Part shown: positions 19,034 through 62,446 of the stretch, one piece after another | Layout of the letters: each line of letters opens with the position of its first letter | Position numbering within the stretch: the stretch's first letter is position 1 | Origin: Candidatus Uhrbacteria bacterium | GTDB lineage: Bacteria; Patescibacteriota; Patescibacteriia; UBA9934; UBA10169 | Direction of reading: 5' to 3' | Length of the DNA: 64,000 nucleotides | Assembly: GCA_016187485.1 (NCBI GenBank) | Contig: JACPJO010000005.1 | Span: 155,519 to 219,518 of the forward strand | Translations under genes and position numbers: made by a program | The notes under the pieces: generated by a model | What the model was told of the DNA's origin: nothing | Database searches by the model: none | The model's input: only the letters and a program-made list of their open reading frames with translations

Positions 19034-19034
19034 A

Positions 19035-22849: not shown

Positions 22850-23485
22850 TTAAGTCGATAGACGTAGGAATGAATTATGTGTCTTTATGACTTCCACGTG
22901 TCCGTCTTGCACAAGAACCGCCTCATCATCCGTTAAGCGGGTGCTCATGACTCCATGCTGTCGCTCATATTCAGCGATCTGTTCTTCTTCAGCCGGTTCA
23001 TAGTGCGGAGTAATGGTGAGATCGACAAGCCCCATACCGCGCATATCCTTGAGATCAACAATGTTTTTATCTCCCCCGACACCAAGTCCTGAATGTCCAA
23101 TATCCTTCCCCGCCACTATCGAGCCGGCGCTTACTCCGATGTAGATCCCCCCTTTTTCTAAAAATGACTTTACTGCTACATCGAAGCCGCTCTCGCGAAT
23201 ATATTTCATGAGGTAATAGGTGTTGCCGCCTTGGACATAGATAATGCGACTGCGCTCAAGTGCTCTTACGGTTTCATCCTGCGTCTTACCAGCCAGATCA
23301 TACTCCTCAACAATCCAACCCATCTGCTCCATTACGACACGGTCTCCGTCCACATAGTGCCAATCCGATTCCGGAACGGACGCCGTGATGATATGCAACA
23401 CATGGGGCGCTCCCTCAAGAGGAGCGACAAACGATTCGATCTCGTGTTTCATTCTCATCCCCGCTGATGTAAGAAAAAGTTTCAT
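22850..23485 (-). CDS. S51-family peptidase (peptidase E / alpha-aspartyl dipeptidase-like)
   Basis: MKLFLTSAG N-terminus, YVQGGNTYYL and YIGVSAGSIVAG (Ser nucleophile in GxSAG) as in PepE/cyanophycinase. Confidence 0.7.
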   Translation of the reverse strand: MKLFLTSAGMRMKHEIESFVAPLEGAPHVLHIITASVPESDWHYVDGDRVVMEQMGWIVEEYDLAGKTQDETVRALERSRIIYVQGGNTYYLMKYIRESGFDVAVKSFLEKGGIYIGVSAGSIVAGKDIGHSGLGVGGDKNIVDLKDMRGMGLVDLTITPHYEPAEEEQIAEYERQHGVMSTRLTDDEAVLVQDGHVEVIKTHNSFLRLST

Positions 23486-23493
23486 GTTCGCCT

Positions 23494-23505
23494 ATTCGCG
23501 CGAAT
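23494..23505. promoter_or_regulatory. ATTCGCGCGAAT palindrome, 8 bp upstream of the S51 peptidase start
   Basis: Read directly. Confidence 0.5.
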
Positions 23506-23517
23506 TAGAGATTGCCC

Positions 23518-25251: not shown

Positions 25252-25263
25252 AAACTATTCTCT

Positions 25264-25277
25264 AATTCGTACGAATT
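25264..25277. promoter_or_regulatory. AATTCGTACGAATT perfect 14-bp palindrome (variant of the motif), 12 bp upstream of the P2 start
   Basis: Read directly; overlaps the P1 stop codon. Confidence 0.45.
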
Positions 25278-27018
25278 AGCCGACCTGTTCGAGATACGCA
25301 AGGTAGCACGCCGTGCAGTAAATCTTCCGTTTTGGAAACGCGATGTTTTTGTGTATCACCACTTCCTTTGAGCACTTTTGACATAGGCCCTGCTCGGCCA
25401 TAAAAGTATTCCCTAGTCGAGCGAGCGCACGGATGCGTGTCATGAAATGTCGCCGAGGAAATGGAAGTCTCATGTGCGTATAAAACGCCACATCTTCTTT
25501 TCGTACGGTAAAGGGACGTTCAAGCTCTGGATCCATAATAGGCCTTCCAGCAAACAACGCGCAGGCCTCCAGTCCATCCGGCAACAACTCCGGATCCATA
25601 GACTCACCATACACGGCCGATTGCGAGAGAGAGATGACCGCCCCGCGCTTCGCATCAAAAACAATTCCACCGAGACGAACAACCTCCTCGTCGGTAAGCG
25701 GTGCATGAAGCTCCCCACCCCACTGGATGCCCGACGGAGAAAAGTCTCCAGGGAAAAAGTTCCCGTACTCGTCCCGATCAAGCATCGCGCATTTCAATTC
25801 GTCGAGCTTGTTCCAATATTCTTCCTCAGCATAGGCCTTGTTGAGAATATGAAACTTCTTGTTCTTGAGTCCAACACATCCGAAGCAGTTTTCACAATCG
25901 GAACAATTGAGACAGTACTCGATGTTTTGACAGCGCATGCACGCCGTCGAGAACAAGACGCGACTCCCGTTGATAACACCAACCGCCATGTAGCTGTCCG
26001 ATGTCCCGTCAATTCCGCTCGTGTACGCATTCCCCTGGACGACGGAATGACAAAGCTGGCAGGCGTACATATCCGTCGCAAACGAAAGTCCGAAACCGTC
26101 GGTGCAACGCACGCACTTCATGAGATACTCTCCACTCGACGCCTCACAGCCGACATTGAAGTTTTCTGGCCATACCGCTTCCGTTCGCAACATCTCGAGA
26201 TAGCGTTGCATCCATGACTGAAAAACTTTCCAGGACGTGAGATCCACTTCTTTCATTTTTTGCTCATACGTCTCTTTCGAAAGTTGTTCATTTGCGAAGA
26301 CGTACTTCCGATTGCGCAAATTGCTCCCGAGAAAGCAGGACTCGCAATTGCGGGAATCAAAGAGGAAATCGCAAGACACGCATTCCTGACATTGCATCGC
26401 CACCCGACAGCGATACATTTTTGTAGAGCGGTTGAGCGAAAAGCTTTCTTGTGACGATGTCCCGATAAAGGTGTCCTCGCAATCTTCCAGCTCTTTGCAC
26501 ATGAACCCGTACGCGGAACGTCTGGTGTTTTTCACGCCGCCAAAAACCATAAACGAATCTTCAGCAGAAATAATCCCGACACCCATACTGTTCACAGGGG
26601 TACCAAAGGTGCGTGTCGCTTGAAATGGCACGGCGTGTAATACCTGGCGAAGTTGTGGAAAAAATGGTTGCGCGATATCAAGACCCCTCGCTCCGCGATC
26701 GCTCCAATCCTGTGCGTGCCACAGAGAGTCCTCAACGACCGGAATGGGATTGTCCGGATGGATATAGGAGACGATGAGTTTCTTGGTCACGGCATCGGTA
26801 TTCCACCAGATGGTAACACCGGAGTTGAAACCGAACAGGAGTTTCCGCCGAATCGTCGGCGAAATATCAGAAGGTGGGACCTGGAACTTACGCATCCAGA
26901 TAAGCTCTTCTTCCGTCATCATCCATCTCTCACCTGAAACCGGGCACACTCGCTCGCCGGGTTGTGCGGCGTCAAGGATCGCTTTGATCTGTACATCGTA
27001 GTTGGGGGTATGAGACAT
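25276..27018 (-). CDS. cysteine-rich paralog family protein P1
   Basis: Start trimmed to MSHTPNYDVQIKAILDAAQPGERVCP. CENCFGCVGLKNKKFHILNKAY. C-terminal CQKCSKEV...YCTACY. Confidence 0.7.
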   Translation of the reverse strand: MSHTPNYDVQIKAILDAAQPGERVCPVSGERWMMTEEELIWMRKFQVPPSDISPTIRRKLLFGFNSGVTIWWNTDAVTKKLIVSYIHPDNPIPVVEDSLWHAQDWSDRGARGLDIAQPFFPQLRQVLHAVPFQATRTFGTPVNSMGVGIISAEDSFMVFGGVKNTRRSAYGFMCKELEDCEDTFIGTSSQESFSLNRSTKMYRCRVAMQCQECVSCDFLFDSRNCESCFLGSNLRNRKYVFANEQLSKETYEQKMKEVDLTSWKVFQSWMQRYLEMLRTEAVWPENFNVGCEASSGEYLMKCVRCTDGFGLSFATDMYACQLCHSVVQGNAYTSGIDGTSDSYMAVGVINGSRVLFSTACMRCQNIEYCLNCSDCENCFGCVGLKNKKFHILNKAYAEEEYWNKLDELKCAMLDRDEYGNFFPGDFSPSGIQWGGELHAPLTDEEVVRLGGIVFDAKRGAVISLSQSAVYGESMDPELLPDGLEACALFAGRPIMDPELERPFTVRKEDVAFYTHMRLPFPRRHFMTRIRALARLGNTFMAEQGLCQKCSKEVVIHKNIAFPKRKIYCTACYLAYLEQVG

Positions 27019-27079
27019 AACGCCCACAGTCTATCTCATTTCCCCCAAAAACTAAAAACCCTGCGCCCCGCCGATCTCC

Positions 27080-35373: not shown

Positions 35374-35417
35374 AATTGGGGAGAAGTGTAGCGGAGGGAG
35401 AAAAGGAGCGCAAGCGA

Positions 35418-35446
35418 TTGACAAATTCCCCTTTTTTGTGCAGAAT
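35418..35446 (+). promoter_or_regulatory. sigma70-like promoter: TTGACA, 17-bp spacer, CAGAAT
   Basis: Hexamers read directly, about 45 bp upstream of the GGDEF gene's ATG. RBS AAAGGAAG. Confidence 0.45.
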
Positions 35447-35489
35447 GGGATGTCCATACTGGACACCTCACGCCAAGAAAGGAAGCGAC

Positions 35490-36167
35490 ATGGGGAACAG
35501 CGACCCTTCCCAGACAGAGGAGCTCGAACGACTCCGCAAACAGGTGCAAGCGCTCGAGGCTGCGATCGCAGCCAAAGATCGCGAGATCGGGACCAAAGAC
35601 GGGATCATCAGCCAATTCGCCCGTCGCGTCGTGAACCTGCGCTCACAGATCCGTGAGAGCGAGGAGACGTCGCACACCGACGGCCTCACCGGACTCCTCC
35701 TCAAGACCGAGCTGGAACGCGCCCTCCCCGGCATCGTACGCCGCGCCAAGAACAGCAGCGAGCCGTTGAGCATGATCTTCGTGGACCTGAACGACTTCCG
35801 CGAGGTCAACACGGCGCACGGTCACATGGGAGGCGACGCGGTTTTGCGAGAGGCCGCGCGCCGTCTCCGGCGCGTGCTCCGCCTCACCGACCTGGCAGGA
35901 CGTGTGGGCGGCGAAGAGTTCGCCGTCATCCTGCCGGGGACGCCCAAGAAGATGGCGGAGCGTGTCGCGACGCGCATCTACGCCGCCATCGCCAAGGATC
36001 CCTACCGCATCCCCGATGATGGCGAGGTCATCATGAGCGCCAGCGTGGGCTGGGCATGCGTCGCGGACACCGGCTACAGCCACGAGGAACTCTACAAGGC
36101 CGCCGACCAGGCCATGTACCGCGGAAAAGCAAAGAAGGGCTCAGGCGAGCCCACCTTGTCCGACTGA
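35490..36167 (+). CDS. GGDEF-domain diguanylate cyclase with N-terminal coiled coil (GC-rich)
   Basis: GGEEF active-site motif, RVGGEEFAVIL. N-terminal LERLRKQVQALEAAIAAK coiled-coil. GC3-biased. Confidence 0.75.
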   Translation: MGNSDPSQTEELERLRKQVQALEAAIAAKDREIGTKDGIISQFARRVVNLRSQIRESEETSHTDGLTGLLLKTELERALPGIVRRAKNSSEPLSMIFVDLNDFREVNTAHGHMGGDAVLREAARRLRRVLRLTDLAGRVGGEEFAVILPGTPKKMAERVATRIYAAIAKDPYRIPDDGEVIMSASVGWACVADTGYSHEELYKAADQAMYRGKAKKGSGEPTLSD

Positions 36168-43293: not shown

Positions 43294-44043
43294 ATGACCG
43301 ACCCCGATTCCCCGACCGAGACCGAGCCCACGGACAAGATGACCACCGGCGACAAGATCCTCTTCAGCATCGTGCTCCTCATCATCATCGGAAGCGCCTG
43401 GTTCAGCATCAGCAACACGCGGGATCTCCGGAAGGACAAGGCGCAGATCGCCATCCTGGAGCAGAAGTTGGCGACGCACGACGAGTACATCGACCAGCAC
43501 CTCTCGGGAGACCTGCCGGAGAACTTCATCCTCGGGCAGTGGGTGACCGACCAGGAGAAGGCCATCAAGGACATCAACGCCGCACTGGGCCCCTACAAGG
43601 ACAACGACGTCCTGCCGGTCATCTCGGGCGCACTCAAGGTCCACAACGTCGCCACGCTCGTCGGGCTCGTGAAGGCCCTCGACAGCGACATGGACGGGAT
43701 CACGAACGAACGCGACCTCTGCCCGAACGAGTCCACGATGGATCCTGCCACCGTCCCCGACGTGAACCAGGACGGCTGCAACGACGATACGGACAGCACC
43801 GCCCGACTGGCCAAGTTCGGGATCAACGGCGTCAAGGGCGTGCGGAAGGTCGGCGCCAGCTGGCGCGTGACCTACACCGCCACGGCCAAGTCCCCGGCCG
43901 ACGAGGCCGAGATCAAGTTCGAGGTCTCGTGCCTGGCCCTCGACAACGAGGGCAAGGAGCTCGCGGCAGACGCCACGATCGCCGACGGATGGACGCCGAC
44001 CAACGTCGACAAGTGCTTTGTCCGGCCCGCCTCCGCAAGCTGA
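43294..44043 (+). CDS. GC-rich membrane-anchored protein with thrombospondin-type-3-like DxDxDG calcium-binding motifs
   Basis: N-terminal TM helix ILFSIVLLIIIGSAWF. DSDMDGITNERDLCPNE and DVNQDGCNDDTD motifs. GC3-biased. Paralogous to 44379..45086. Confidence 0.55.
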   Translation: MTDPDSPTETEPTDKMTTGDKILFSIVLLIIIGSAWFSISNTRDLRKDKAQIAILEQKLATHDEYIDQHLSGDLPENFILGQWVTDQEKAIKDINAALGPYKDNDVLPVISGALKVHNVATLVGLVKALDSDMDGITNERDLCPNESTMDPATVPDVNQDGCNDDTDSTARLAKFGINGVKGVRKVGASWRVTYTATAKSPADEAEIKFEVSCLALDNEGKELAADATIADGWTPTNVDKCFVRPASAS

Positions 44044-44161: not shown

Positions 44162-44187
44162 TCTCTCTAAGAGATCTCTTAGAGAGA
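44162..44187. repeat. REP-like perfect palindrome TCTCTAAGAGATCTCTTAGAGA (family A)
   Basis: Read directly. A related half-site CCTCACTTAGAGAGAA lies at about 44249-44266. Confidence 0.75.
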
Positions 44188-44378
44188 AAATACTGGGGGA
44201 GAGCTTCTTGTGCTTACTTTAGAGCTTAATATCGTCAATCCCACTTGTCCTCACTTAGAGAGAATTTCCCGTGGTATTAACCGCTGTTGACTTTTTCTCT
44301 AAATTCATCTAACCTCCTCCCCTTGTGCCGGGCAATCCTTGTCCGCCACATTCGCCCTTTGGGCAAAGGAAGACGGGC

Positions 44379-45086
44379 ATGTCCGACCCCGCTTTGGGCG
44401 CTTCTGGCGCCACCAACAAGAACAAGGAAGATGAGCCCGGAGCGCTCGACAAGATCTTCAGCGCGAGCGTTCCCGTCTGGGTGTTCCTCATGTTCGTCAT
44501 CATGCTCGGGCTCATGCACTTCTTCTGGGGCGTGAGCCGGGGACGCACGGACAAGATCGCGAGGCGCGTTGCCCAAATCGCCGTGCCCCTCGAGCACGCG
44601 GCGAAGGCCAGCAACAAGTCCACGACCGAGATCGCGGACTCACTGGTCGAGGTGGGCAACAGCGAGACGCTCGTGCGGCTCCGCGCGCTCGACCCGAAGG
44701 TGGTGGATCACCTCGTGGCGGAGTTCACCGACCAGGACGAGGACGGCCTCCCGGACTACAAGGACACCTGCCCCATGAAGCCGCCACGGAACTTCCCGCA
44801 AGGCTTCCCGCCGACCTACTACCCCAACGACTGGAACAAGGACGGCTGCGACGACGACGAGCGCGACGTCTCCGGCCTCCTCGCCACGATCGTCACGGGA
44901 AGACTCGGCTGGCGTGAGATCGTCGGCCACGAGACTCGGTTCGTCTACCAGGCGAACGGGTACACCGTCTTCTGCGTCCCGCTCGACGCGAACGGCCGGC
45001 CCTACGAGCCCACCACCCCCGGGGGCCTGGCGTCGGACCCGCCCAACGTGGGCACCTGCCTCGTCCGGGGCCCGTTCTACCACTAG
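44379..45086 (+). CDS. GC-rich membrane-anchored paralog with DxDxDG motifs
   Basis: RBS AAGGAAG. TM helix VWVFLMFVIMLGLMHFFW. DQDEDGLPDYKDTCPMK, NKDGCDDDERD. Confidence 0.55.
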   Translation: MSDPALGASGATNKNKEDEPGALDKIFSASVPVWVFLMFVIMLGLMHFFWGVSRGRTDKIARRVAQIAVPLEHAAKASNKSTTEIADSLVEVGNSETLVRLRALDPKVVDHLVAEFTDQDEDGLPDYKDTCPMKPPRNFPQGFPPTYYPNDWNKDGCDDDERDVSGLLATIVTGRLGWREIVGHETRFVYQANGYTVFCVPLDANGRPYEPTTPGGLASDPPNVGTCLVRGPFYH

Positions 45087-45105
45087 TACGTTCCTTCTTT
45101 TCAAT

Positions 45106-45131
45106 CCAGCCCACGGCTGGATTTCGCTTTG
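45106..45131 (+). terminator. hairpin CCAGCCcacGGCTGG plus ATTTCGCTTTG preceded by a CT-tract (conserved 3' module)
   Basis: Read directly after the stop at 45086. Confidence 0.5.
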
Positions 45132-45165
45132 TCAACTAGTAACAACTCAAGTAGAATGTGGCAGT

Positions 45166-46455
45166 ATGTTACACCAAACCGACCCACAGATTGCCGAGTA
45201 TCTCGAGGCTGAGCTGGAGCGTTCTCGACGCGGACTCGAGATGATTCCTTCCGAGAACTTTGTAAGTCAAGCCGTACTCGAGGCGCTCGGTTCCGTTGGC
45301 ACCAACAAATACTCCGAAGGATATCCCGGCATGCGTTACTATGGGGGGAACGAATTCGTGGACGCGATCGAAAATGTGGCACGCGATCGGGCAAAAGCGT
45401 TGTTTGGAGTTTCGCACGCTAATGTTCAGCCGGCGTCGGGATGTGCGGCCAACATTGCCGTCATGTTTGCTTTATTGAACCCAGGCGACACGCTCATGGG
45501 AATGTCCCTTCCCTTTGGTGGTCACATGACACACGGACTCAAAGTAAATTTCTCTGGCCGGTATTACAACTCCGTTCAATACACGGCGACAAAAGATGGA
45601 TGGATGGATTTTGAAGAGATGCAAAAACTTGCCGAAGAACACAAACCAAAACTCATCATTGTAGGAGCCACGGCTTATCCGCGCGTGATTGATTGGGCAA
45701 AGGCACGACAGGTTGCCGACACGGTTGGAGCGTTCCTTTTAGCCGACATCTCTCACGTTGCAGGTCTTATTATTTCTGGTGACCATCCCTCCCCCGCCGG
45801 TATCGCGGACGTCATCACTACGACCACACACAAAACGCTTCGTGGCCCGCGTGGCGCGATGATTCTGTGCAACGGCAATCCTTCACAACCGCTTAAACCC
45901 GCCGACGTGACAAAAGAGAATATCCCCACGCTTGTTGATCGTGCGATCATCCCAGGTATTCAAGGCGGGCCGCATAATCACCAAACCGCCGCCATCGCCG
46001 TCGCTCTCCACGAGGCGGCACGAGATTCATTCAAAGAGTACGGCCACCAAATCGTGAGGAATGCGAAAGCGCTCGCGGGCGCACTCACGGGGCATGGTTT
46101 TGAGCTTGTCACGGGAGGAACTGATAACCACTTGATGGTCGTCGACCTCACGAACAAAGGGCTAAGCGGTAAGGAAGCAGGAATTGCACTCGATAAAGCC
46201 GGTATCACGGTCAACAAAAACACCGTGCCATTTGACATACGCAAGCCATTCGACCCTTCGGGCATCCGGCTTGGCACGCCGGCGCTCACGACCCGTGGCA
46301 TGAAGGAGAGCGAGATGATCGAAATCGCCGGATACATTGCAGAGGCCGTTGCCCAACATACCGATGAGGCAAAACTTGCCGCCATCAAACAGTCCGTCCG
46401 CACCCTCACTGACCGTTTTCCCCTTTACCCTTCCCTCACTTATCTCTCTAAGTGA
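45166..46455 (+). CDS. glyA: serine hydroxymethyltransferase
   Basis: EMIPSENFVS, GYPGMRYYGG, PLP-Lys context TTTHKTLRGPRG. The long GC-rich N-terminal extension in the track is rejected as an artefact. Confidence 0.9.
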   Translation: MLHQTDPQIAEYLEAELERSRRGLEMIPSENFVSQAVLEALGSVGTNKYSEGYPGMRYYGGNEFVDAIENVARDRAKALFGVSHANVQPASGCAANIAVMFALLNPGDTLMGMSLPFGGHMTHGLKVNFSGRYYNSVQYTATKDGWMDFEEMQKLAEEHKPKLIIVGATAYPRVIDWAKARQVADTVGAFLLADISHVAGLIISGDHPSPAGIADVITTTTHKTLRGPRGAMILCNGNPSQPLKPADVTKENIPTLVDRAIIPGIQGGPHNHQTAAIAVALHEAARDSFKEYGHQIVRNAKALAGALTGHGFELVTGGTDNHLMVVDLTNKGLSGKEAGIALDKAGITVNKNTVPFDIRKPFDPSGIRLGTPALTTRGMKESEMIEIAGYIAEAVAQHTDEAKLAAIKQSVRTLTDRFPLYPSLTYLSK

Positions 46456-46469
46456 TCACTAAGTGAGGA
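46443..46469. repeat. REP-like element TCTCTCTAAGTGATCACTAAGTGAGGA (family A) overlapping the glyA stop
   Basis: Read directly. Followed by GATAACTGGGGTTGACAAGAA, a 50-bp block nearly identical to 52688-52737. Confidence 0.7.
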
Positions 46470-46521
46470 TAACTGGGGTTGACAAGAACAAGAAAAAGTG
46501 TTTACATAACCACAGCTTAAC

Positions 46522-46556
46522 AAATCTCCCCCTTGAGCTGGGAGATTTGTTTTTTC
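46522..46556 (+). terminator. rho-independent terminator AAATCTCCCccttgagctGGGAGATTT plus T-run
   Basis: 9-bp stem followed by GTTTTTTCT, downstream of glyA. Confidence 0.6.
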
Positions 46557-46566
46557 TAAACAAAAC

Positions 46567-46592
46567 TCTCTCTAAGTCATCACTAAGAGAGA
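46567..46592. repeat. REP-like element CTCTCTAAGTCATCACTAAGAGAGAA (family A), 5 bp upstream of the RAYT start
   Basis: Read directly. Confidence 0.7.
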
Positions 46593-46596
46593 ATTT

Positions 46597-47250
46597 ATGC
46601 GGCTAGAAGAGTTTACAAATGGGGAGTTTTACCATATTTATAATCGTGGCGTAGACCGGCAGACAATGTTCCGAGAGAGAGAGGACTATCTCGTCTTCCT
46701 CGGATACCTTTATCAGTTTAATAGTTCCCAGAGCATTAAAACTTCTCGACACTCTCGCACTACACTTGTGTCTATTATCAGCTACTGCCTCATTCCCAAC
46801 CATTTTCATCTGGCAATGCGTCAGGAACAGGACGGCGGAATCTCCAAGTATCTCCACAAAATCGGTATGCGCTATGCAAAGTACTTTAATGCAAAATATG
46901 GGAGAAAAGGCCGATTCTTTGAAAACGCCTTCCAGGCCAAGCACATCTCATCAGATGCATACCTAGAGCATATACCACGATACATTCACTTAAATGCCCT
47001 GGATCTCACTGCCCACGATTGGCGTAATGGGAGTGTAAGAAATTGGAACGATGCTCTTGCCCACCTAGAACAATACCCATGGTCGAGTCACCACGCATAC
47101 AGCACAAGGTCACAAGCCATTCCAATTATTGAGATGCGGATTGTAAAGGAAATGTTTCCTACTCCAAAGGAATATATTTCATTTCTTAAACAGTGGTCTC
47201 AAGCCGAAATCTCCACGTTGTCTCTTAGTGATCTCTTAGTGACAACTTAG
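46597..47250 (+). mobile_element. IS200-like / REP-associated tyrosine transposase (RAYT, HuH Y1 transposase) gene
   Basis: YHIYNRGVDRQTMF and IPNHFHLAM (HuH) motifs; about 217 aa. Flanked on both sides by family-A REP-like palindromes. Confidence 0.65.
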
Positions 47251-47256
47251 AGAGAA
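47221..47256. repeat. REP-like element TCTCTTAGTGATCTCTTAGTGA...CTTAGAGAGAA (family A) overlapping the RAYT 3' end
   Basis: Read directly. Confidence 0.65.
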
Positions 47257-47277
47257 ATTGGTATCGTGGCGGGCGTT

Positions 47278-48090
47278 ATGATGAAGATGCTTGATGGGCG
47301 AGTATTAGCTGAGCGGATTCGAGAACGTGTGGCGGAGAAGACGCGCGAGTTCGGCCACCAGCCCGGTCTTGCAATTATTTTGGTCGGTGACGATCCTGCG
47401 TCACACCTGTACGTGCAGCTCAAAGAAAAAGCCTGCGAAGAGGTCGGGTTTCTTTTTGAAAAACATGTCCTTCCCGCAAATACGCCGACAGACCAACTTG
47501 TCCTCCTTGTGAAGCAATTAAACGCGCGCGGGGACATCCACGGAATTTTAGTCCAGCTCCCCCTTCCCTCTCAAGACGAAGACGCGGTTATCCGCACTAT
47601 CCACCCGGCAAAAGATGTGGACGGGTTCCATCCGCAAAACTCCTCTCTTGCTCCACCCACCGTGCTTGGCATCATGAAACTCATCGAGTCAACAGGCGAG
47701 TCGATCACAGGAAAACATGCATGCGTTGTCGGATCAGAATTATTTGCCAATCCTCTGCAAACCTTCCTGGCCGAGCGCGGCGTTGAAACGACGCGCCTGG
47801 ACCCCTCTTCCCCCACTCTCGCCGAGCAAACAAAAAATTACGACATTCTTATTACGGTTGTAGGAAAACCCGGACTGATTACTTCCCCGATGATTAAGCC
47901 TGACGCCATCGTGATTGATGTGGGCACCACGCGCGTAGACGACAAAACTGTCGGCGACGTGGATCCATCTGTCGCGGAGGCAAACACTGGTTGGCTCACG
48001 CCTGTTCCGGGGGGCGTGGGGCCGATGACGGTTGCCATGCTGATTCTGAATGTTCTAAGAGCGGCACATCTTCAGCACGACGGCGCTTGA
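47278..48090 (+). CDS. folD: bifunctional methylenetetrahydrofolate dehydrogenase/cyclohydrolase
   Basis: LAIILVGDDPASHLYV, GILVQLPLP, VPGGVGPMTVAML. The start is ambiguous: a GTG at 47266 or ATGs at 47278/47281/47287. Confidence 0.85.
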   Translation: MMKMLDGRVLAERIRERVAEKTREFGHQPGLAIILVGDDPASHLYVQLKEKACEEVGFLFEKHVLPANTPTDQLVLLVKQLNARGDIHGILVQLPLPSQDEDAVIRTIHPAKDVDGFHPQNSSLAPPTVLGIMKLIESTGESITGKHACVVGSELFANPLQTFLAERGVETTRLDPSSPTLAEQTKNYDILITVVGKPGLITSPMIKPDAIVIDVGTTRVDDKTVGDVDPSVAEANTGWLTPVPGGVGPMTVAMLILNVLRAAHLQHDGA

Positions 48091-48472
48091 GAAAGATAGG
48101 TACCAGAAACCCCAACACAACCGCAAGATCTACCGCTATCGAGAACAGCTCGGTAAATTCTGTTTGCCATGGGATACCATAGAGAAATGGATTGAGAAGA
48201 GCGGATGCGAGCGCAAACAACGCTCCCCACGCTAACGCCATCTCCCCGCCGTGCCGCGCAGACGGCGTTGGGTGGCCGCGAAAGAAAAGCGCGGAGAAAA
48301 GTGCGCTCAATACGGGGATGCTCGCCATCATGGCATACCCTGGCCACAGACTTCCAGGGGTGTACAACACGGCATACGAGACGACAAACACAGACGCCGC
48401 ATGTACGAGGAGAAGGAATGCAACCCAGAAGATGACAAACCGGCTGGCAAGACGCGCGAGAGGATGTATCAT
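47996..48472 (-). CDS. hypothetical membrane protein
   Basis: Four hydrophobic helices; coding-like. Convergent overlap with the folD 3' end, so low confidence. Confidence 0.3.
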   Translation of the reverse strand: MIHPLARLASRFVIFWVAFLLLVHAASVFVVSYAVLYTPGSLWPGYAMMASIPVLSALFSALFFRGHPTPSARHGGEMALAWGALFALASALLNPFLYGIPWQTEFTELFSIAVDLAVVLGFLVPIFLKRRRAEDVPLLEHSESAWQPSSAPRPPEQA

Positions 48473-49605
48473 ACAACATGCGAAAGAAGTTCCACGACGG
48501 CTCCCGCAAAAAAGAGGAGGCCGATGAGCCACAAGAGTGGGAGTGGAATAGTAAAGCATTTTATCCGGCGGCACACGGTGCGTTGAAGCCGGCGGTAAAT
48601 GACAAGAATAAGGCAGGCAAGAAGCGCCGAGAAGACCGTGCCGGTAAAACTAATAACGGTAATAAACTCGCGTACACCAAAAAGAAAGAGCAGTGCGGGA
48701 ACTCCAAGAGCAAGTACAACGGCCGATAGACGACCAAATCCAAGATCACGACGACACGTATCTTTCAACTGCTCTCCAATCATCATGAAAATAGACCATA
48801 GCGTGAGAAGGCCGAGCACTGATCCCACCGCTGCCATGTCGGGTCCAATCACGCGCGCAAAGCCAAGAAGCACGTTGGGAGTCGTGGTTGAACCTGTCAC
48901 ACCCACCATGAGAAATGTGAAAAGAAGGTAGAGGAGAAAAATAATTCCCGATCCGTACAACACGGCGCGAGGCAAGCGATATTCATACCTCTCACCCAAG
49001 ATCGCATGCATCTCGGGCATGACACCAAGACTAGAAGTAGCAAACAGGATAATGCCGTAGGGAACGAAAAAATGCTCAAGGTTCACCGCAGTAATGAGAG
49101 CGGGATCAAACGCGGGGAGGCCAGAAAGCATGAGTACGAGAAACAGTGTGAGAAGAACAGCACCGATGAGAAGCTCGAAAGACGCGGCGCGGCGCAACGG
49201 AAGAACGACCAGCAAGAGGCCAACAAGAAAGAACATCGAGGGTCCCGCAAGCGGCGGGAGCGCAGGAAAAAGCGTGCGCAAAAATTCGCCACCTAAAATA
49301 AGATACGAGAGCAAAATCCCCCACTGCCCGCCAAAAAAAATGAGCATGGCAATAGCGCGCGCGCCCGGGCCGAGGTAGTGCCCTGCGAGTCCCACCAGTC
49401 GCGACTGCCCTGGCGTTTGTATGGTGATCTCCGCCAAAAGAAGTTGGAGAAGAAGGAGAAAAAATCCAAGTACGACAAGGAAGAACGCGCCCGCCACCCA
49501 CCCCGATTGTGCAAACGCATACGGAAGCCCGAACACCCCCGCCCCAAGCGTCGAGCCAACAAACACTGCGGTTGCTTGCAGGGAACGTTTCCGCGCCTCC
49601 GTCAT
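48469..49605 (-). CDS. amino-acid permease-like membrane transporter (aromatic amino acid/AAAP-type)
   Basis: About 11 TM helices; FVGSTLGAGVFGLPYAFAQSGW N-terminal motif. Confidence 0.6.
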   Translation of the reverse strand: MTEARKRSLQATAVFVGSTLGAGVFGLPYAFAQSGWVAGAFFLVVLGFFLLLLQLLLAEITIQTPGQSRLVGLAGHYLGPGARAIAMLIFFGGQWGILLSYLILGGEFLRTLFPALPPLAGPSMFFLVGLLLVVLPLRRAASFELLIGAVLLTLFLVLMLSGLPAFDPALITAVNLEHFFVPYGIILFATSSLGVMPEMHAILGERYEYRLPRAVLYGSGIIFLLYLLFTFLMVGVTGSTTTPNVLLGFARVIGPDMAAVGSVLGLLTLWSIFMMIGEQLKDTCRRDLGFGRLSAVVLALGVPALLFLFGVREFITVISFTGTVFSALLACLILVIYRRLQRTVCRRIKCFTIPLPLLWLIGLLFFAGAVVELLSHVV

Positions 49606-49706
49606 ATTGGCATCAGTATACCAAAGTTACTGCGAACCGTCCCCAAAACATACACAGGTTGTGCGCTTGCGAGAGCGTAACGCTGGTCGTACTATACGCC
49701 CACCCT

Positions 49707-51191
49707 ATGGCAGGAATCGATCGCGTCCCCCCGCACAATCTAGAGGCCGAGGCATCTCTGCTTGGTTCGCTTTTGATTGATCAACAAGCCGCCATCAAGA
49801 TTGCCGACCGCCTAAGCGCCGAGGACTTCTATCGCCCGGCTCACGCCACTGTCTATGAGGCCATGATGTATTTGTTTGCGCGTCACGAGCCGATCGACGT
49901 GCTTTCGGTGGGCAACCGACTTGAGGAAATGAGTAAGCTTGAAGAGATCGGCGGACGAAGCGGACTTGCAGAGATCTCCAATACGGTTCCCACGGCGGCG
50001 CACGTGGGACACTACGCAGACATCGTCAAGAAGAAGGCGGTTTTGCGCCGACTGATTTCCGCTGCAAACGATATCTCCGCGCTTGGGTACCACGAGGAAC
50101 AGGAAATTGAACAACTCCTCGACCAAGCAGAGCAGCGGCTTTTCGGCGTATCCCAACGGATGCTTAAGCAAAACTTTGTGCCGCTTACCGATATTTTGGC
50201 GCAAGCATTCGAGCGTATTGATGAACTCCATCGCGAACGCGGCAAGCTCCGCGGCCTCCCCACGGGTTTCTCCGAGCTCGATAGTATCCTTGCCGGCCTG
50301 CAGAAGTCCGACATGGTCGTACTTGCTGCCCGCCCATCGGTAGGAAAGACGAGTCTTGCTCTTGATGTGGTACGCAACGTTGCGATCAAAACAAAACTGC
50401 CTGTTGCCGTTTTCTCTCTTGAAATGAGCAAGGAGCAACTGGTGGACCGCATGATCTGTACCGAGGCAAACGTGGATTTGTGGAAGATGCGCACGGGGCG
50501 GCTTTCCGAACGCGACGACGACTTTCCGCGTATTGGACATGCGCTTGGTGTTCTTTCCGAGGCGCCAATTTTCATTGACGATTCCGCCGGCGCCAATATT
50601 ATGGAGATCCGCACAAAATGCCGGCGCCTCCAAAGCGAAAAAGGGCTTGGTCTTGTTGTTATTGATTATCTTCAGTTGATGGAGGCCCCAGGCGGATCTA
50701 CCAATGACAGCAACCGCACACAAGAAGTCTCCCAAATGAGCCGCGGACTCAAACAGCTTGCACGCGAACTCAACGTCCCGGTAGTAGTGCTGTCACAGTT
50801 GAACCGCGCGGTCGAGCTTTCCAAACCCGCGATCCCCAAACTCGCTCACCTACGCGAGTCCGGCTCTATTGAGCAAGACGCCGACGTCGTGTTGTTCATC
50901 TATCGCAAATCGGCTGACCCGAATTTCCGCAACGAAGAACTGCCGCTCGAAGAACGAAGTTCCGCAGAAATTTATATAGCGAAACACCGCAATGGGCCCG
51001 TGGGTATGGTGCGGCTCGCCTTTGATCCACAACGCGTGTGTTTCCGGTCTATGGATCGACGCCACCCTTCCGCACAGCCATCAGTATCTCAAAAACCCTC
51101 GATGCCACTCATTGAGCCTCCGCCTTTGGAAACGATTGAGATTCCTCCACCCCCCGAACCTTCATCCGATGTCTCATCCGACGAGACGTAA
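49707..51191 (+). CDS. dnaB: replicative DNA helicase DnaB
   Basis: PHNLEAEASLLGSLL N-terminus; Walker A AARPSVGKTSLAL; VIDYLQLM; RecA-like C-terminal domain. The GC-rich upstream extension in the track is rejected. Confidence 0.9.
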   Translation: MAGIDRVPPHNLEAEASLLGSLLIDQQAAIKIADRLSAEDFYRPAHATVYEAMMYLFARHEPIDVLSVGNRLEEMSKLEEIGGRSGLAEISNTVPTAAHVGHYADIVKKKAVLRRLISAANDISALGYHEEQEIEQLLDQAEQRLFGVSQRMLKQNFVPLTDILAQAFERIDELHRERGKLRGLPTGFSELDSILAGLQKSDMVVLAARPSVGKTSLALDVVRNVAIKTKLPVAVFSLEMSKEQLVDRMICTEANVDLWKMRTGRLSERDDDFPRIGHALGVLSEAPIFIDDSAGANIMEIRTKCRRLQSEKGLGLVVIDYLQLMEAPGGSTNDSNRTQEVSQMSRGLKQLARELNVPVVVLSQLNRAVELSKPAIPKLAHLRESGSIEQDADVVLFIYRKSADPNFRNEELPLEERSSAEIYIAKHRNGPVGMVRLAFDPQRVCFRSMDRRHPSAQPSVSQKPSMPLIEPPPLETIEIPPPPEPSSDVSSDET

Positions 51192-51241
51192 TGTGCTACC
51201 ATGTCCTCTGGCAACTCCCCTAACTCCTACAAGCTACCTCT

Positions 51242-51541
51242 ATGTTCTCCAAAATTAAAGCCATCAAGGACATGCGCAATCAGGCAAAGAAGATGCAGAG
51301 CGCGCTTGCGGAAATTATCGAAGTAAGTGAAGCCGCGCACGGAGGCATACGCATCACGATGGATGGTAATCAAGTCGTGCAACGTGTAGAAGTCGCCGAC
51401 ACCATGCTCACAGAAAAAATAAGGCTCGAGGGGGCGCTTAAAGAAGCATTCAATGAAGCCGTGCAGAAAATCCAAAAAAAGATGGCGGCAAAAGTAAAAG
51501 AAATGGGCGGGCTGGATGCATTCAAAAATCTTGGCGTGTGA
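51242..51541 (+). CDS. ybaB: nucleoid-associated protein YbaB/EbfC
   Basis: 99 aa; MQ...QKMQ...AFNEA pattern; sits between dnaB and recR. Confidence 0.75.
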   Translation: MFSKIKAIKDMRNQAKKMQSALAEIIEVSEAAHGGIRITMDGNQVVQRVEVADTMLTEKIRLEGALKEAFNEAVQKIQKKMAAKVKEMGGLDAFKNLGV

Positions 51542-52137
51542 GGAAGTTTCCCGAACCCATCCAAACTCTCATGACAGAGTTCATGCGTCTTCCAGGCGTC
51601 GGACCAAAGACGGCGCTTCGATATGTCTACGCGCTCTTGAAACAGGGCGCAGCCGCGCGTGAATCGTTTGCGGAAGCCGTCAATAATCTTTCCCACATCC
51701 AGCTCTGCTCGCGGTGTTTTGTCCACGCGGAATCCCCTCTCTGCCCGCTCTGCAGCGACCCTACAAGGGACGACCGGCTGTTGTGCGTGGTCGCAGAGTC
51801 GCGAGACATTGCCACCGTAGAAGCAACGGGAACGTATCGCGGACGCTACCACGTGCTTGGGGGATTTCTCGATCCTGTCGAAGGAGTCACGTCGGAGCAT
51901 TTGCGCGTGCGCGAGCTCGTAGAACGCGTGATGACCGACCAGAAAATTGAAGAAATCATTTTGGCAATCTCCCCTGACCTTTTGGGGGAAATGACCATGA
52001 GCCATGTCTTCCAAGCGCTGAAACCTTTGAGCCGGCGCGTGACACGCTTGGCGCGCGGGCTGCCCACCGGCGCCGAACTAGAGTTTGCTGATGAGGTGAC
52101 GCTTGGGGATGCATTTGCTGGTCGGCGCGAAATATAA
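51538..52137 (+). CDS. recR: recombination protein RecR
   Basis: LPGVGPKTA HhH motif, C4 zinc finger CSRCF...CPLC, Toprim segment. Confidence 0.9.
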   Translation: MRKFPEPIQTLMTEFMRLPGVGPKTALRYVYALLKQGAAARESFAEAVNNLSHIQLCSRCFVHAESPLCPLCSDPTRDDRLLCVVAESRDIATVEATGTYRGRYHVLGGFLDPVEGVTSEHLRVRELVERVMTDQKIEEIILAISPDLLGEMTMSHVFQALKPLSRRVTRLARGLPTGAELEFADEVTLGDAFAGRREI

Positions 52138-52175
52138 AACGATGCCCGGCGACTTTGTGCCAAGCATCGTTTTTG
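52138..52175. terminator. bidirectional rho-independent terminator AACGATGC...GCATCGTT plus TTTTG between convergent recR and rplU
   Basis: 8-bp perfect stem read directly. Confidence 0.65.
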
Positions 52176-52484
52176 TTATGCAATTTTTTCAATCTTGATG
52201 CTCGTAAACGGCTGTCGGTGGCCTGCCTTGCGGCGATAACGGACCTTCGCTTTGTACTTGATGACCGAGATTTTTTCGCTGCGGCCATGCTCCACCACTG
52301 TGGCGCTCACCATTTTGCCGCTTCCAGGCTTTCCCACAGTAATCTGGCCTCCATCCTCTTCCGCCACCAAAAGCGCGTCAAATTCCAGCGGCGCGCCAAC
52401 GGCCTGCTCAAGTTTCTCCACTTTGAGCACCTGCCCCTCGTGCACGAGGTACTGTTTCCCTCCGGTCGCAATGACTGCAAACAT
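52176..52484 (-). CDS. rplU: 50S ribosomal protein L21
   Basis: MFAVIATGGKQYLV...KYKAKVRYRRKAGHRQ. Start trimmed to MFAVI. Confidence 0.85.
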   Translation of the reverse strand: MFAVIATGGKQYLVHEGQVLKVEKLEQAVGAPLEFDALLVAEEDGGQITVGKPGSGKMVSATVVEHGRSEKISVIKYKAKVRYRRKAGHRQPFTSIKIEKIA

Positions 52485-52670
52485 AGATGTTTTTCGTCCG
52501 CCGGCGCCTCGCAGAGAGGACTTGAAAGCCAACGGCTCGTTTAAGAATGGGGAGAGTGTAGAGGACTTAGGGGGAAATGTCAACGAGCTCCTCCGGCCGC
52601 CTAGCGACCCCTCTTCTTCTCACAAAGGCCCCACGGCCTTTTTCAAATTGGGAACCCATCCAATCCCAAA

Positions 52671-52700
52671 CTTTCTCTCTAAGTCATCACTAAGTGAGGA
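52671..52700. repeat. REP-like element CTTTCTCTCTAAGTCATCACTAAGTGAGGA (family A), followed by a TTGACA-containing block
   Basis: Read directly; near-identical to 46443-46490. Confidence 0.7.
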
Positions 52701-52761
52701 TAAGTGGGGGTTGACAAAGAAAAACGCTAAAGTAAGAAGAGAAAGTTTTTTGTCCGTGTTT

Positions 52762-52787
52762 TCTCTCTTAGTGATCACTAAGAGAGA
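52762..52787. repeat. REP-like perfect palindrome TCTCTTAGTGATCACTAAGAGA (family A)
   Basis: Read directly. Confidence 0.75.
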
Positions 52788-52905: not shown

Positions 52906-53463
52906 ATGGACCCGTACGTTCTCATCGCAACCGTCTCCACCCTCGCCGCCCTCGGTGCCCTGTGCGTGATCTTCTCCTCCCTCTACCGCGCCGAGCAGCG
53001 GAAGCTCGAGCTCAAGACCGAGGCATACGACGGACTAGCCAAGGAAGCCAAGCGCGTGGCGCGAGCAGCCGACAAGTACAAGGAGCTGAGCTCGCTCTCG
53101 CTCGATGTGCTTTTCGACCTGTACCTGTTCAACATCATCTCCACGGCGAAGGGACAGAGTGTCAGCCTTTGCACGTCCATCGCCAAGAGCATGCTCGGTC
53201 TCTGCGCCAAGCGCGGATGGACCTTCGAGGAGACCATGGCCTACTTCGAGCAACGGTTCGTCTTCTACAGTGAGGACCGTCCCTCCATGGAGCCGATCGT
53301 CACGGCGATCCGCGGCATCATCACGACAAGCGAGTTCCGCATCGGCGTGGACGGTGCCGTCGCGTGGTTCCCAGCTTCCCCCGAATACGAGGCCGCCGCC
53401 ACGACGTGGCTGCACCTGCGTTCAACAAGAGACAAGCCTGATCCCCATCCGCCCGCTGCCTAG
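52906..53463 (+). CDS. GC-rich hypothetical membrane protein (N-terminal TM helix)
   Basis: AGGAG RBS 8 nt upstream. TM helix VLIATVSTLAALGALCVIF. GC3-biased. Confidence 0.5.
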   Translation: MDPYVLIATVSTLAALGALCVIFSSLYRAEQRKLELKTEAYDGLAKEAKRVARAADKYKELSSLSLDVLFDLYLFNIISTAKGQSVSLCTSIAKSMLGLCAKRGWTFEETMAYFEQRFVFYSEDRPSMEPIVTAIRGIITTSEFRIGVDGAVAWFPASPEYEAAATTWLHLRSTRDKPDPHPPAA

Positions 53464-60006: not shown

Positions 60007-60035
60007 CGACGACACGACACTCGGTGTCGTCGTGG
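60007..60035. repeat. REP-like palindrome (family B, core ACAC-TCG-GTGT): ACGACGACACGACACTCGGTGTCGTCGT
   Basis: Read directly; abuts the stop at 60006. Confidence 0.65.
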
Positions 60036-60036
60036 T

Positions 60037-60714
60037 TTATTCGTCGAAAGAACCTCCCGGAATATCGAATGTGAGTGCCATGCGGCCGACCCACTCTTCC
60101 ATTTCCTTAAGGTACTCTAACGGGTCTGGAGCTCTTTCTTTTAGATACTGCTCGTCTAAAATAGGGACTCGCTCCAACTGTCCACGAAATGCATGATAAC
60201 TAGACCAGGAATACACGTCCAGGAATGTTTTGGCTTTTGGCCATTCCTTAGAAACCCCCTCCCTCCATAATATTCCGCTTAAATCGAGGGGGTTTAAGTG
60301 AATATAATTTGTGAGATGGAACCATTGAGATTCCCTGCAGATATGGACACACCTGTAGGCAGACTCAAAGAGTGTGCCTCTACGTTCATGGAGAGTATTA
60401 AAGTATTTTGCATATGCCATCTGGAATCGTTGAAGGAACCTCTGAATCCCATTTTCCTTTACCTGCTTCAATTTCATGTGAAAATGATTCGGCATAATAA
60501 CGTAAGAGCAGATTGCAACAAGCCGCTTCTCTTTTAGAACAACACTCGGTGTTGTTCTAAGTATATCCCTGGAAAGCCGATCTTCTTGATTACAAAAATG
60601 AAGCAGCAAAAGAAACCTTTCAAAATCCCCGTCATTATGAAAGAGGGTTTGTCGATCTACTCCTCTATTAAAGACGTGGTAATACTCTCCGATGGCTAAT
60701 TCAGTGTTCCTCAT
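60037..60714 (-). mobile_element. second IS200-like/RAYT (HuH Y1) transposase gene, diverged paralog
   Basis: YHVFNRGVDRQTLF and MPNHFHMKL (HuH) motifs; 225 aa. Surrounded by family-B REP palindromes. Confidence 0.65.
60538..60558. repeat. family-B REP palindrome GAACAACACTCGGTGTTGTTC located inside the RAYT2 coding region
   Basis: Read directly. Confidence 0.75.
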
Positions 60715-60721
60715 AAAATGT

Positions 60722-60739
60722 CGAGACTCGGTGTTGTCG
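60722..60739. repeat. family-B REP (imperfect) CGAGACTCGGTGTTGTCG just upstream of RAYT2
   Basis: Read directly. Confidence 0.55.
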
Positions 60740-60854
60740 TCAAAAACATAAACTCCCCAGCTCTTATAGTGGGGAGTTTATTACTTACTTTGCTTAGTCA
60801 ATCATATTTTCATTTAAAAATCAAGGTGTCGCTGTGGAAAACCTGTCACAATAA

Positions 60855-60877
60855 CCTACAACACTCGGTGTTGTAGG
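60855..60877. repeat. family-B REP perfect palindrome CCTACAACACTCGGTGTTGTAGG
   Basis: Read directly. Confidence 0.75.
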
Positions 60878-60961: not shown

Positions 60962-62446
60962 CTAGTGCTTCATGGCGTTGTCCGTTTGCGCGGCGAGAAG
61001 CATGGGTGCGATGGTCCGGTCGAAGAGGACGCGGATCTCGTGCGCTCGGACATCCCGGCCGAGATTCTCTTGCAATGTCGCAAGATTGTTCGCCTCGAGA
61101 GTCAGTGCCTCGACCCTCTGCACGCTGAGCGATCCAGCCTTGGCCCGAGACGATACCTCATCACATGTGGCGAGGAAGCGCTCGGTCCATCGATCAATGG
61201 ACGCAGCGTGAGATGACCCAACCTCCTCGACAAGAAGTCTGTCCCAGTGGGCCCTGGCCAAGAAGTAGAACACTTCGGCCACATTGGCGAGCGCCTCCGG
61301 CTCCATATCGTCCGTGACGAGGGACAGCGGTCCGACCGGCAAACCCTGGTGTGGATTGTACGGATTGCAGAGAGACGCGCCTTCCAACCGGAGATTCCCC
61401 TGCAGTAACTGGTCGAACTCTTCTCCCACCTTGATGGCCCGAGCCGCATCCCCAACCTCCTGCGCCAGAAGATACAACTCTCTAAAGAACGCGCCGACAA
61501 CGCTCTCTTTGGCACGCTGGAACGTCTCCGGCCCATCGATCTGACTCGGCGCCGCTCGAGCAAAGGCCTCGAGAGCGCACTGCCGTCGTGCCATCGTGTG
61601 CGTCAGGGATTGGACGGCGATATCCAGGTTGCGGCCACTCGCAGGCATGAGCCTATCGACCATGGCCTTTCGCAAATCCGTCATCTCGAGAAGCAACGCA
61701 GCCTGCGCCAGGTTGTCGTCCGCCCGAATGAAGGCCGCCTGGAGAACATCCAGACCGCGGCGGAGATGTTGGTCGGACGAGCCGTGCCACTCCTCGTCCG
61801 ATGGATGCTCGATGTAGGACCCGTGGTAGCGAGCCATGAAGACAGCCACAGCCGTCTCCGCTCCTGCTTCCGTGGCCTCGTCGAGTACCTCTCGCACCAT
61901 CTCCACGAGCGAATCGAACTCGGAGGTGTCCCGATCTCGATTGACGGCCTCCCGGAGCACTTTGAGCGCAACCATGCTCCGCTGCTGCGACACTTGGCGA
62001 TCGAGTGCAGGATTCAACCGTAGGGAATCGCCGAGCACATAGGCGATGGCGAGCGAAAGCCCGAGCGTCCATTTGTCGCGCTCCGCTGGGGGATAGTCAG
62101 CAATATTCCTCGCGTAGTCCCTCGGCGCCTGCTCCAATTCCGCGAGCATGCGGCCTTCCTCCTCCTCCGTGAACACGTAGCCGCCGACTAGAAGCCGGAC
62201 AGCGTGGAGGGCGAACGTGTCGAACGCATTGCCAATCCTGGCCTGGGGCGTGAACGCCGGCTCTGCGAGAGGCGTCAGTGCCTCCAGTCCGACACGCGCG
62301 TTCACGTACTGGCGGAGGATGTACGCTTGCTTCCCGACCTCACTAGTGGACTCGAGGCTGTAGGACACGTCCCTTGCCACGCTCGTGATCGGAAGGAGGG
62401 ACACGATGGCGAGGAGCGCCGCGACCAGAAATGAACGAGAGAACAT
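60962..62446 (-). CDS. secreted hypothetical protein (signal peptide; GC-rich)
   Basis: MFSRSFLVAALLAIVSLLPITSVA signal peptide; 494 aa; alpha-helical composition; GC3-biased. Confidence 0.5.
   Translation of the reverse strand: MFSRSFLVAALLAIVSLLPITSVARDVSYSLESTSEVGKQAYILRQYVNARVGLEALTPLAEPAFTPQARIGNAFDTFALHAVRLLVGGYVFTEEEEGRMLAELEQAPRDYARNIADYPPAERDKWTLGLSLAIAYVLGDSLRLNPALDRQVSQQRSMVALKVLREAVNRDRDTSEFDSLVEMVREVLDEATEAGAETAVAVFMARYHGSYIEHPSDEEWHGSSDQHLRRGLDVLQAAFIRADDNLAQAALLLEMTDLRKAMVDRLMPASGRNLDIAVQSLTHTMARRQCALEAFARAAPSQIDGPETFQRAKESVVGAFFRELYLLAQEVGDAARAIKVGEEFDQLLQGNLRLEGASLCNPYNPHQGLPVGPLSLVTDDMEPEALANVAEVFYFLARAHWDRLLVEEVGSSHAASIDRWTERFLATCDEVSSRAKAGSLSVQRVEALTLEANNLATLQENLGRDVRAHEIRVLFDRTIAPMLLAAQTDNAMKH

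Follow-up and report, generated by a model that had tools for sequence, protein, structure and literature searches.

What raises a question about the stretch of DNA analyzed here, 64,000 nucleotides of Candidatus Uhrbacteria (contig JACPJO010000005.1, positions 155,519 to 219,518; referred to as the window), is a set of short repeats and to which gene they belong. The repeats surround a gene for a transposase-like protein, here termed RAYT-1, located between glyA and folD. In the original prediction, gene and repeats were taken for a system of repetitive extragenic palindromes (REPs) with a REP-associated tyrosine transposase (RAYT), where the repeats would also bracket GC-rich cassettes and carry an outward promoter. 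We consider it highly probable that a member of the candidate phyla radiation (CPR) here carries a REPtron/TIRtron-type locus, the units of which are atypical and phased at 11 bp. RAYT-1 would then be an old transposase-like gene that has become domesticated and is framed by short repeats of its own. The locus was found to consist of the following parts, all on the plus strand:

46443-46468, plus strand: pal a, two direct 11-mers, spanning the glyA stop; the left terminal repeat of the locus.
46469-46507, plus strand: the extension GGATAACTGGGG and a putative promoter, with TTGACA at 46479-46484, 17 nt, TGt, and TTACAT at 46502-46507.
46519-46556, plus strand: AAATCTCCC...GGGAGATTT with a T-run behind it, a terminator-like hairpin that separates the promoter from pal b.
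46567-46592, plus strand: pal b, a 26-nt imperfect palindrome with its end 4 nt ahead of the ATG; the Shine-Dalgarno-like AAGAGAG lies within it.
46597-47250, plus strand: RAYT-1, a 217-aa HuH-Y1 (RAYT/TnpA_REP-like) protein between glyA and folD.
47221-47255, plus strand: the downstream block, three phased 11-mers; the right terminal repeat.
47239-47267, plus strand: a folD-facing promoter-like site found by promoter scan, GTGACA-17-TATCGT with a TG extension, the -35 lying within the downstream block.

The protein was found to be of the RAYT type in sequence as well as in fold. RAYT-1 scored 30.6 bits against Pfam Y1_Tnp (cut-off 23), and 147 relatives were found in the databases, with Candidatus Uhrbacteria and other CPR groups as the source of nearly all. 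Among 45 aligned homologues the N-terminal YHxxNRG, the HuH motif (N68-H69-F-H71), Y129, and N133 were invariant; the HuH/Tyr catalytic residues, the absence of which had been named as one of two joint grounds for giving up the RAYT interpretation, are thus in place. The tyrosine motif has the context RYIHLNA (LNP in some relatives), and in a profile search the HuH motif was aligned with that of ISDra2 TnpA. The spacing Y---N(P/A) belongs to class 2 (TnpA_REP) and Y----Q to classes 1 and 3 (Quentin et al., 2018, PMC6006769); Y129...N133 of RAYT-1 fits the class-2 signature. An AlphaFold (AF2) model with a predicted local distance difference test (pLDDT) score of 93.4 had as its top Foldseek match in the PDB 4er8_A (E 6.2e-6, template modelling (TM) score to target 0.70), which is E. 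coli TnpA_REP bound to a REP hairpin, with the IS608 and ISDra2 transposases ranking behind. A single-sequence PDB search with RAYT-1 returned spurious prolactin matches only. The C-terminus contains an extra helical region of ~80 aa, with a conserved Ser (S164). The RAYT-1 sequence is present in one copy in the window, together with one paralogue of 40% identity (RAYT-2), and no tnpB was present at the locus.

The repeats are built from an 11-bp unit, TCWCTWAGWSA, which in the window matched at 13 positions (24 strand matches, compared to 0.29 expected from dinucleotide shuffles). All of these matches were confined to 44164-52785, and a stricter unit pattern gave 11 matches where 0.08 were expected. 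Each unit is a 5+1+5 dyad, and the units are arranged head to tail in 11-bp phase, in blocks of 22-26 bp and one block of three units. All seven sites proposed for the repeat were recovered, at 44162-44187 (a perfect 26-bp palindrome), 44251-44263 (a half site), 46443-46468, 46567-46592, 47221-47255 (the three-unit block), 52674-52699, and 52762-52787. As had been claimed, the stop codons of both glyA (46453-46455) and RAYT-1 (47248-47250) lie inside units. The overlap claimed for the RAYT-1 start was not found, since the block at 46567-46592 covers the ribosome-binding site (RBS) and not the start codon. The description of the repeats as palindromes applies to a part of them. The b-type blocks (44162, 46567, and 52762) form good hairpins as single-stranded DNA, with z from -2.9 to -5.3. 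The a-type blocks (46443 and 52674) and the block at 47221 are mostly direct 11-mer repeats, and as single-stranded DNA their folding does not exceed that of shuffles (z around -0.5 to -0.9). When units 2-3 of the downstream block are reverse-complemented, they agree with pal a at 20 of 24 positions. TTGACA is indeed carried by repeat copies, at 46479-46484 and 52711-52716, and the inverted copy reads TTGACG at 44238-44233. The near-identical block of ~50 bp reported around TTGACA was found when taken as 46443-46486 compared to 52674-52718 (41 of 45 positions identical), and not when taken as 46458-46510 compared to 52688-52737 (40 of 56).

The strongest evidence on the ownership of the repeats came from comparison with related loci. 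An orthologue of RAYT-1 was found beside folD on contigs L059 (74% protein identity), L048 (61%), and L060 (55%). In L048 and L060 glyA is located upstream of the orthologue; the short L059 contig ends before that point. The genomic GC content of L048 is about 40% compared to about 53% here, a difference of ~13 points. The repeat blocks were at the same positions wherever the contigs cover them. In L048 the three blocks, the TTGACA box, and the intervening hairpin are all in place, with units that are nearly unchanged despite diverged surroundings. In L060 all eight symmetric units, at all three sites, read CCWCTWAGTGG, so that both outer positions changed jointly while the layout and the 11-bp phasing were retained. 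Taken block by block, pal a is conserved in L048 and has co-varied in L060, pal b is conserved in both, and the downstream block is almost identical in L048 and L059 and has co-varied in L060. Distant homologues (43-46% identity) are found at other chromosomal places, each with a palindrome pair of its own, of which the first member immediately precedes the ATG and the second spans the stop codon or follows it closely. Their palindromes are as follows:

L051: CCCGCCTTCCCTTAGGCAAGGCGGG
L054: CAGGGCTAAGCCCTG
L056: GTGGCTAGGCCAC
L057: GGAGATGTACTTTACATCTCC

Since each homologue has a different palindrome pair and the L060 units changed in concert, the repeats are tied to the gene that they flank. 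The proposal that they are the cognate flanking elements of RAYT-1 therefore held: orthologues keep or co-vary them, and paralogues have different ones. This pattern of a gene framed by its own repeats is that of the REPtron/TIRtron described by Ton-Hoang, Nunvar, Di Nocera, Bertels, and Quentin, and with such a pattern the sites are unlikely to belong to a separate host regulator. As judged from these sequences, RAYT-1, a HuH-Y1 protein of the TnpA_REP/RAYT kind, has been passed on vertically and has kept a stable position between glyA and folD. TTGAC was also considered as a cleavage site like the TTGAT of ISDra2; TTGAC or TTGAT was found near some palindromes of the other loci, inconsistently, and the idea was not adopted. 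Scans of public sets (without the source genome) for a 22-nt dimer pattern gave 3 genome-contig, 33 metagenome-contig, and 5 viral-contig matches, all of them isolated, at chance level, and none near a RAYT homologue. An Rfam scan of 43-54 kb gave nothing relevant.

The same gene-repeat pairing was met a second time within the window:

60037-60714, minus strand: RAYT-2, a paralogue of 225 aa that shares 40% identity with RAYT-1 and has a repeat family of its own.
60011-60875, minus strand: four copies of the RAYT-2 hairpin ACAACAC-CGA-GTGTTGT (ACAACACCGAGTGTTGT), 4 matches compared to 0.36 expected.

RAYT-2 was found by tblastn with RAYT-1 (E 3e-49) and scored 22.7 bits against Pfam Y1_Tnp, slightly below the cut-off. 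The hairpin cores are located at 60015-60027, 60540-60552 (inside its own open reading frame), 60722-60734, and 60859-60871. The upstream module of RAYT-2 resembles that of RAYT-1 and includes a similar hairpin. RAYT-2 adjoins a 494-aa ORFan gene at 60962-62446 that is rich in GC at third codon positions (GC3).

Upstream of RAYT-1 the order is pal a, extension, TTGACA, 17-nt spacer, TGn with TTACAT, hairpin with T-run, pal b, and ATG. The -35, the 17-nt spacer, and the TGn with a -10 are repeated in L048 (TTTTAT) and L060 (TTAAAT). The terminator-like hairpin (RNA fold -16 kcal/mol, z -3.5) is kept in both of these with compensatory stem changes, and pal b is predicted to form a single-stranded DNA hairpin of -6.2 kcal/mol (z -2.9). 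The TTGACA at 46479 was proposed to be an outward promoter; it does belong to a predicted promoter conserved in three orthologues, but this promoter faces the RAYT-1 gene itself and has the terminator-like hairpin directly behind it. From this order of parts we infer a promoter-attenuator arrangement, in which a sigma-70-type extended -10 promoter, a terminator-like hairpin, and an RBS-sequestering palindrome would keep RAYT expression low. At the other end of the gene, the downstream block encodes the last ~10 residues of RAYT-1 and the stop codon. The folD promoter-like arrangement is also present in L048 (TATCCT) and L059 (TATTTT), which supports a putative outward promoter to folD that overlaps the repeats at the RAYT-1 stop. 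Besides encoding the end of RAYT-1, the downstream block may accordingly also provide a folD promoter with its -35. The Correia elements of Neisseria likewise supply promoter hexamers for neighboring genes; these are present in hundreds of copies, and their mobilization mechanism is unrelated.

Repeats were also found away from the RAYT gene, as predicted. The window was extended via edge proteins on overlapping Logan contigs, by 8.8 kb to the left and 6.6 kb to the right, and in the resulting 79.5 kb there were, in addition to the gene-side module of RAYT-1 (module A), three doublets without a gene:

Element B, 52674-52787, plus strand: pal a, an extension with TTGACA, a spacer with CTAAAGTAAG, and pal b.
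Element C, 44162-44263, minus strand: inverted compared to A, B, and D, with pal b at 44162-44187, TTGACG, and half of pal a at 44251-44263.
Element D, L065:15465-15598, ~5.8 kb to the left of the window start: pal a, spacer, and pal b.

The three elements are 104-134 nt in size with a mutual identity of 63-72%. They have in common a 20-nt extension, GAGGAYAAGTGGGRTTGACR, and the CTAAAGTAAG motif, so that the extension and TTGAC(A/G) are retained in all of them, and all are without the 35-nt -10/hairpin segment that is present in module A. Because these derived features are shared, B, C, and D are best regarded as copies of one another and not as independent duplications of the RAYT upstream region. 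The features imply that a gene-less derivative probably spread in the past. Element B is absent from the orthologous spacer downstream of L21 in L048, and no informative presence/absence polymorphism of B, C, or D was found among the sample contigs.

All three elements have a particular neighborhood. Element B is located 118 nt upstream of the GC3-rich ORFan 52906-53463, and C sits between two GC3-rich paralogous genes (29% identical); both placements agree with the original prediction. Element D lies about 50 kb from the RAYT-1 gene, between truD and a 398-aa GC3-rich ORFan, and its pal a ends 11 nt before the truD ATG. By GC3 the genes fall into classes, with 0.53-0.64 for housekeeping genes, 0.43-0.46 for the two RAYT genes, and 0.74-0.95 for about ten ORFan genes. 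The GC3-rich genes are located as follows:

Window: 10855-11844, 12255-12776, 35376-36167, 43294-44043, 44379-45086, 52906-53463, and 60962-62446.
L065: 13671-15421 and 17073-17984.

Most of the GC3-rich genes have no Pfam domain; one has a GGDEF domain, and one is a strict ORFan. The latter, 52906-53463, had no homologue but itself in 5.8 billion proteins, so that no donor can be inferred and a recognizable transferred gene is rejected. B, C, and D each adjoin a foreign-looking gene with a GC3 of 0.83-0.94. About one fifth of the spacers adjoin a GC3-rich gene compared to three of the three gene-less elements (p roughly 0.01 by our estimate), and these three cases make an association of gene-less elements with foreign-looking genes suggestive. 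The proposed co-localization with cargo of horizontal gene transfer is thus real as an association, with three copies only behind it. The further claim that the repeats bracket GC-rich cassettes did not hold. A copy is found on one side or in the middle only, and the repeats were ruled out as cassette boundaries since the far ends of the GC-rich genes carry plain, ordinary terminators only. In L048 the DNA after L21 has 55-61% GC despite a genome of ~40% GC, yet no element is found there, which indicates that this site is variable in its own right. The elements would therefore appear to have settled in permissive spacers rather than to carry or capture genes, and their place beside foreign-looking genes is most likely due to variable spacers tolerating insertions. 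A 37-nt direct repeat, TCYTTTCTCTCGGGGACCCAATCGTCCCCATTCCCCC (97% identical), was seen at 11864-11900 and 12797-12833, each time behind a GC3-rich gene; it includes a GGGGAC...GTCCCC hairpin and may serve both genes as a terminator.

The orientation of the elements raises the possibility that B, C, and D are promoter-bearing miniature elements, similar to Correia elements, that drive the adjacent foreign genes. The TTGACA of B and D points at the start of a GC3-rich ORFan, 118 nt (B) and 44 nt (D) past pal b, and conservation among the three elements is highest in the 20-nt extension that ends in TTGAC(A/G). However, 16-18 nt from the -35, where a -10 is expected, the hexamers found among the elements are TAAGAA, TAAGCA, and TAAGCG, with no T at position 6 and no TG extension. 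Element C points at the 3' end of a convergent gene, and the promoter scan reports none of these sites. The -35 may instead persist as part of a protein-recognition sequence. Since the gene-less copies keep the -35 but have no acceptable -10, the REP-borne outward promoter of the original prediction is not supported for them, and we regard it as unlikely that these elements drive their neighbors. A wider role would be that the RAYT-1 module is more than a tamed transposase, namely a conserved cis/trans device in the one-carbon pair glyA-folD, with the repeats providing the glyA stop and the folD promoter and with doublets that mark or prepare spacers for uptake or expression of foreign, GC3-rich ORFans in a CPR genome that is otherwise streamlined. 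This would be the first functional role of a RAYT system in host gene regulation or gene acquisition, and we rate the chance of it as distinctly small.

Another possibility is that the 11-mers are operators of a host transcription factor that controls RAYT-1, folD, and the neighboring GC-rich genes. Dimeric DNA-binding proteins have operators similar to these 5+1+5 dyads phased at 11 bp, promoter-like sites lie next to the blocks or are overlapped by them, and several blocks are poor hairpins. On the other hand, in every homologue examined, RAYT-2 included, the gene is flanked at exactly the same two places by a palindrome pair that differs from the others, and the units of L060 changed in concert. 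A separate factor that co-varied with each RAYT lineage would be unparsimonious, and we find operators of this kind very unlikely.

That RAYT-1 is an ordinary autonomous IS200-family insertion sequence placed between glyA and folD could be suggested by the name of its Pfam family, Y1_Tnp being "Transposase IS200 like." In Salmonella, IS200 has a terminator-like hairpin and an RBS-hiding stem upstream of its Y1 transposase gene, and the hairpin and the RBS-occluding palindrome upstream of RAYT-1 resemble this regulation. IS200 is, however, a multi-copy mobile insertion sequence, whereas RAYT-1 is present in one copy in the window, without tnpB, and its location is unchanged among four lineages with protein differences of up to 45% and genomic GC contents ~13 points apart. 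The tyrosine motif is Y---N, as in class-2 RAYTs, and not Y----Q, and the best fold is TnpA_REP. The conserved gene order contradicts an ordinary IS200, which we regard as extremely improbable. It is also hardly credible that B and C, an inverted pair of 84 nt placed 8.4 kb apart, are recombination sites for inversion of the glyA-to-L21 segment: the inverted repeat I1 brackets 44242-52707 and is 70% complementary over 84 nt, but this is a low value for homologous recombination, a single orientation is seen in all contigs assembled from at least 10 samples, and L048 has the same gene order without element B.

We therefore return to a REPtron/TIRtron-type locus; the RAYT/REP interpretation of the original prediction is in essence upheld, and the comparative data make it considerably stronger. 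Several observations must be set against it. The classical GT[AG]G foot of REPs is absent, with no GTAG or GTGG beside any block; subclasses 2.6 and 3 are known to have atypical REP feet. In half of the blocks the 11-mers are directly repeated and form weak hairpins, so that duplex binding fits better than the single-strand recognition of TnpA_REP. In addition, RAYT-1 scored 31.9 bits compared to a cut-off of 80 for NCBIfam REP_Tyr_transpos. Being above the Pfam cut-off and below this one, it belongs to the superfamily and is not an equivalog of the proteobacterial RAYTs. The low mutual identity of B, C, and D (63-72%) means that any mobility is ancient. A hidden Markov model (HMM) made from the three elements found no further full copy in the 79.5 kb; with three gene-less copies in this stretch, a REP-like abundance is unproven. 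Finally, the link between RAYT-1 and the units is one suggested by comparison and not a biochemical one. In a REPtron/TIRtron-type locus RAYT-1 would bind the units, either as single-stranded hairpins or in duplex DNA, where the 11-bp phasing would place them on one face, and its former activity may have included copying or moving the doublets, the role that RAYTs are believed to play for REPINs.

Among known systems, the REPtron of E. coli (TnpA_REP, 4er8, with REP/BIME repeats, BIME being bacterial interspersed mosaic element) is similar in its HuH-Y1 domain with Y---N and is the best structural match. It also shares a low-copy, vertically inherited gene with its own palindromic repeats on both sides, a repeat family for each paralogue, and gene-less doublets elsewhere on the chromosome. 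It differs from the locus described here, which has 11-bp phased dyads, several of them in direct-repeat blocks with weak hairpins, in place of a GT[AG]G foot, a protein of 217 aa with a C-terminal helical extra of ~80 aa that is far below the NCBIfam equivalog cut-off, and a copy number that looks low, with three gene-less copies in 79.5 kb. The TIRtron with its TIRYT protein (Di Nocera et al., 2013, PMC3733652) has a RAYT-like gene framed by terminal inverted repeats (TIRs) rather than by classical REPs. The TIRs are partly self-complementary, are able to overlap the 5' or 3' end of the gene, and form small families or none, and the protein is longer, with a C-terminal extension that holds a conserved Ser, as does S164 of RAYT-1. 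TIRYT has its probable counterpart in TnpA_Y1 subclass 2.1, and atypical subclasses like 2.6 belong to the same comparison (Quentin et al., 2018, PMC6006769). No REP-like structures were given for subclass 2.1 in that study, whereas they are clear and conserved here, and the GGGGWSAS motif of some TIRs is absent here. B, C, and D resemble REPINs (Bertels and Rainey, 2011, PMC3116915) in consisting of ~100-130 nt with two related palindromic blocks and a spacer, and in being non-coding and presumably non-autonomous partners of a RAYT that has one close copy here. REPINs typically occur in tens to hundreds of near-identical copies compared to the three seen here, which are 63-72% identical, and the long hairpin that joins both ends is weak in B, C, and D.

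The kind of system found here is thus already known, and the locus is a modest extension of known biology. To our knowledge, studies of RAYTs and REPs are almost confined to Proteobacteria and a few other cultured phyla. Our literature search found no paper linking REPs or RAYTs with CPR/Patescibacteria. The same gene is found here at the same place in lineages ~13 GC points apart, with units that are fixed in some lineages and changed in concert in one, and a second paralogue with its own repeats within the same 64 kb adds to the comparative set. This set is direct comparative evidence for co-evolution of protein and repeat. The 11-bp phased dyads hint at a mode of recognition that is possibly unlike the single-strand hairpin binding of E. 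coli TnpA_REP.

Other repeats were seen in the course of the analysis. On L051 the der (GTPase) gene is flanked by two ~140-nt palindromic copies (5956-6096 and 7469-7608) of an element rich in GTAG/CTAC, with arms of 58 nt that are 90% complementary; this is a different family, of the GTAG type, in a CPR genome. In the window, the region of ~15500-27030 (minus strand) is occupied by six paralogous genes (~575 aa) in tandem that repeat every ~1.76 kb, with no Pfam match and a conserved ATTCGCGCGAATTAGAGA in the spacers. The mnmA reading frame at 9323-10468 (minus strand; Pfam tRNA_Me_trans, 249 bits) contains three in-frame, perfect 30-bp palindromes, GGGGTCAGACCCCGTACGGGGTCTGACCCC, at 9431-9460, 9525-9554, and 10017-10046, with the peptides GSDPVRGQTP, GSDPVRGLTP, and GVRPRTGSDP. 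There is no copy of this palindrome elsewhere in the 64 kb, with 0 expected by chance, and it resembles the Rickettsia-type palindromic elements that insert into genes.

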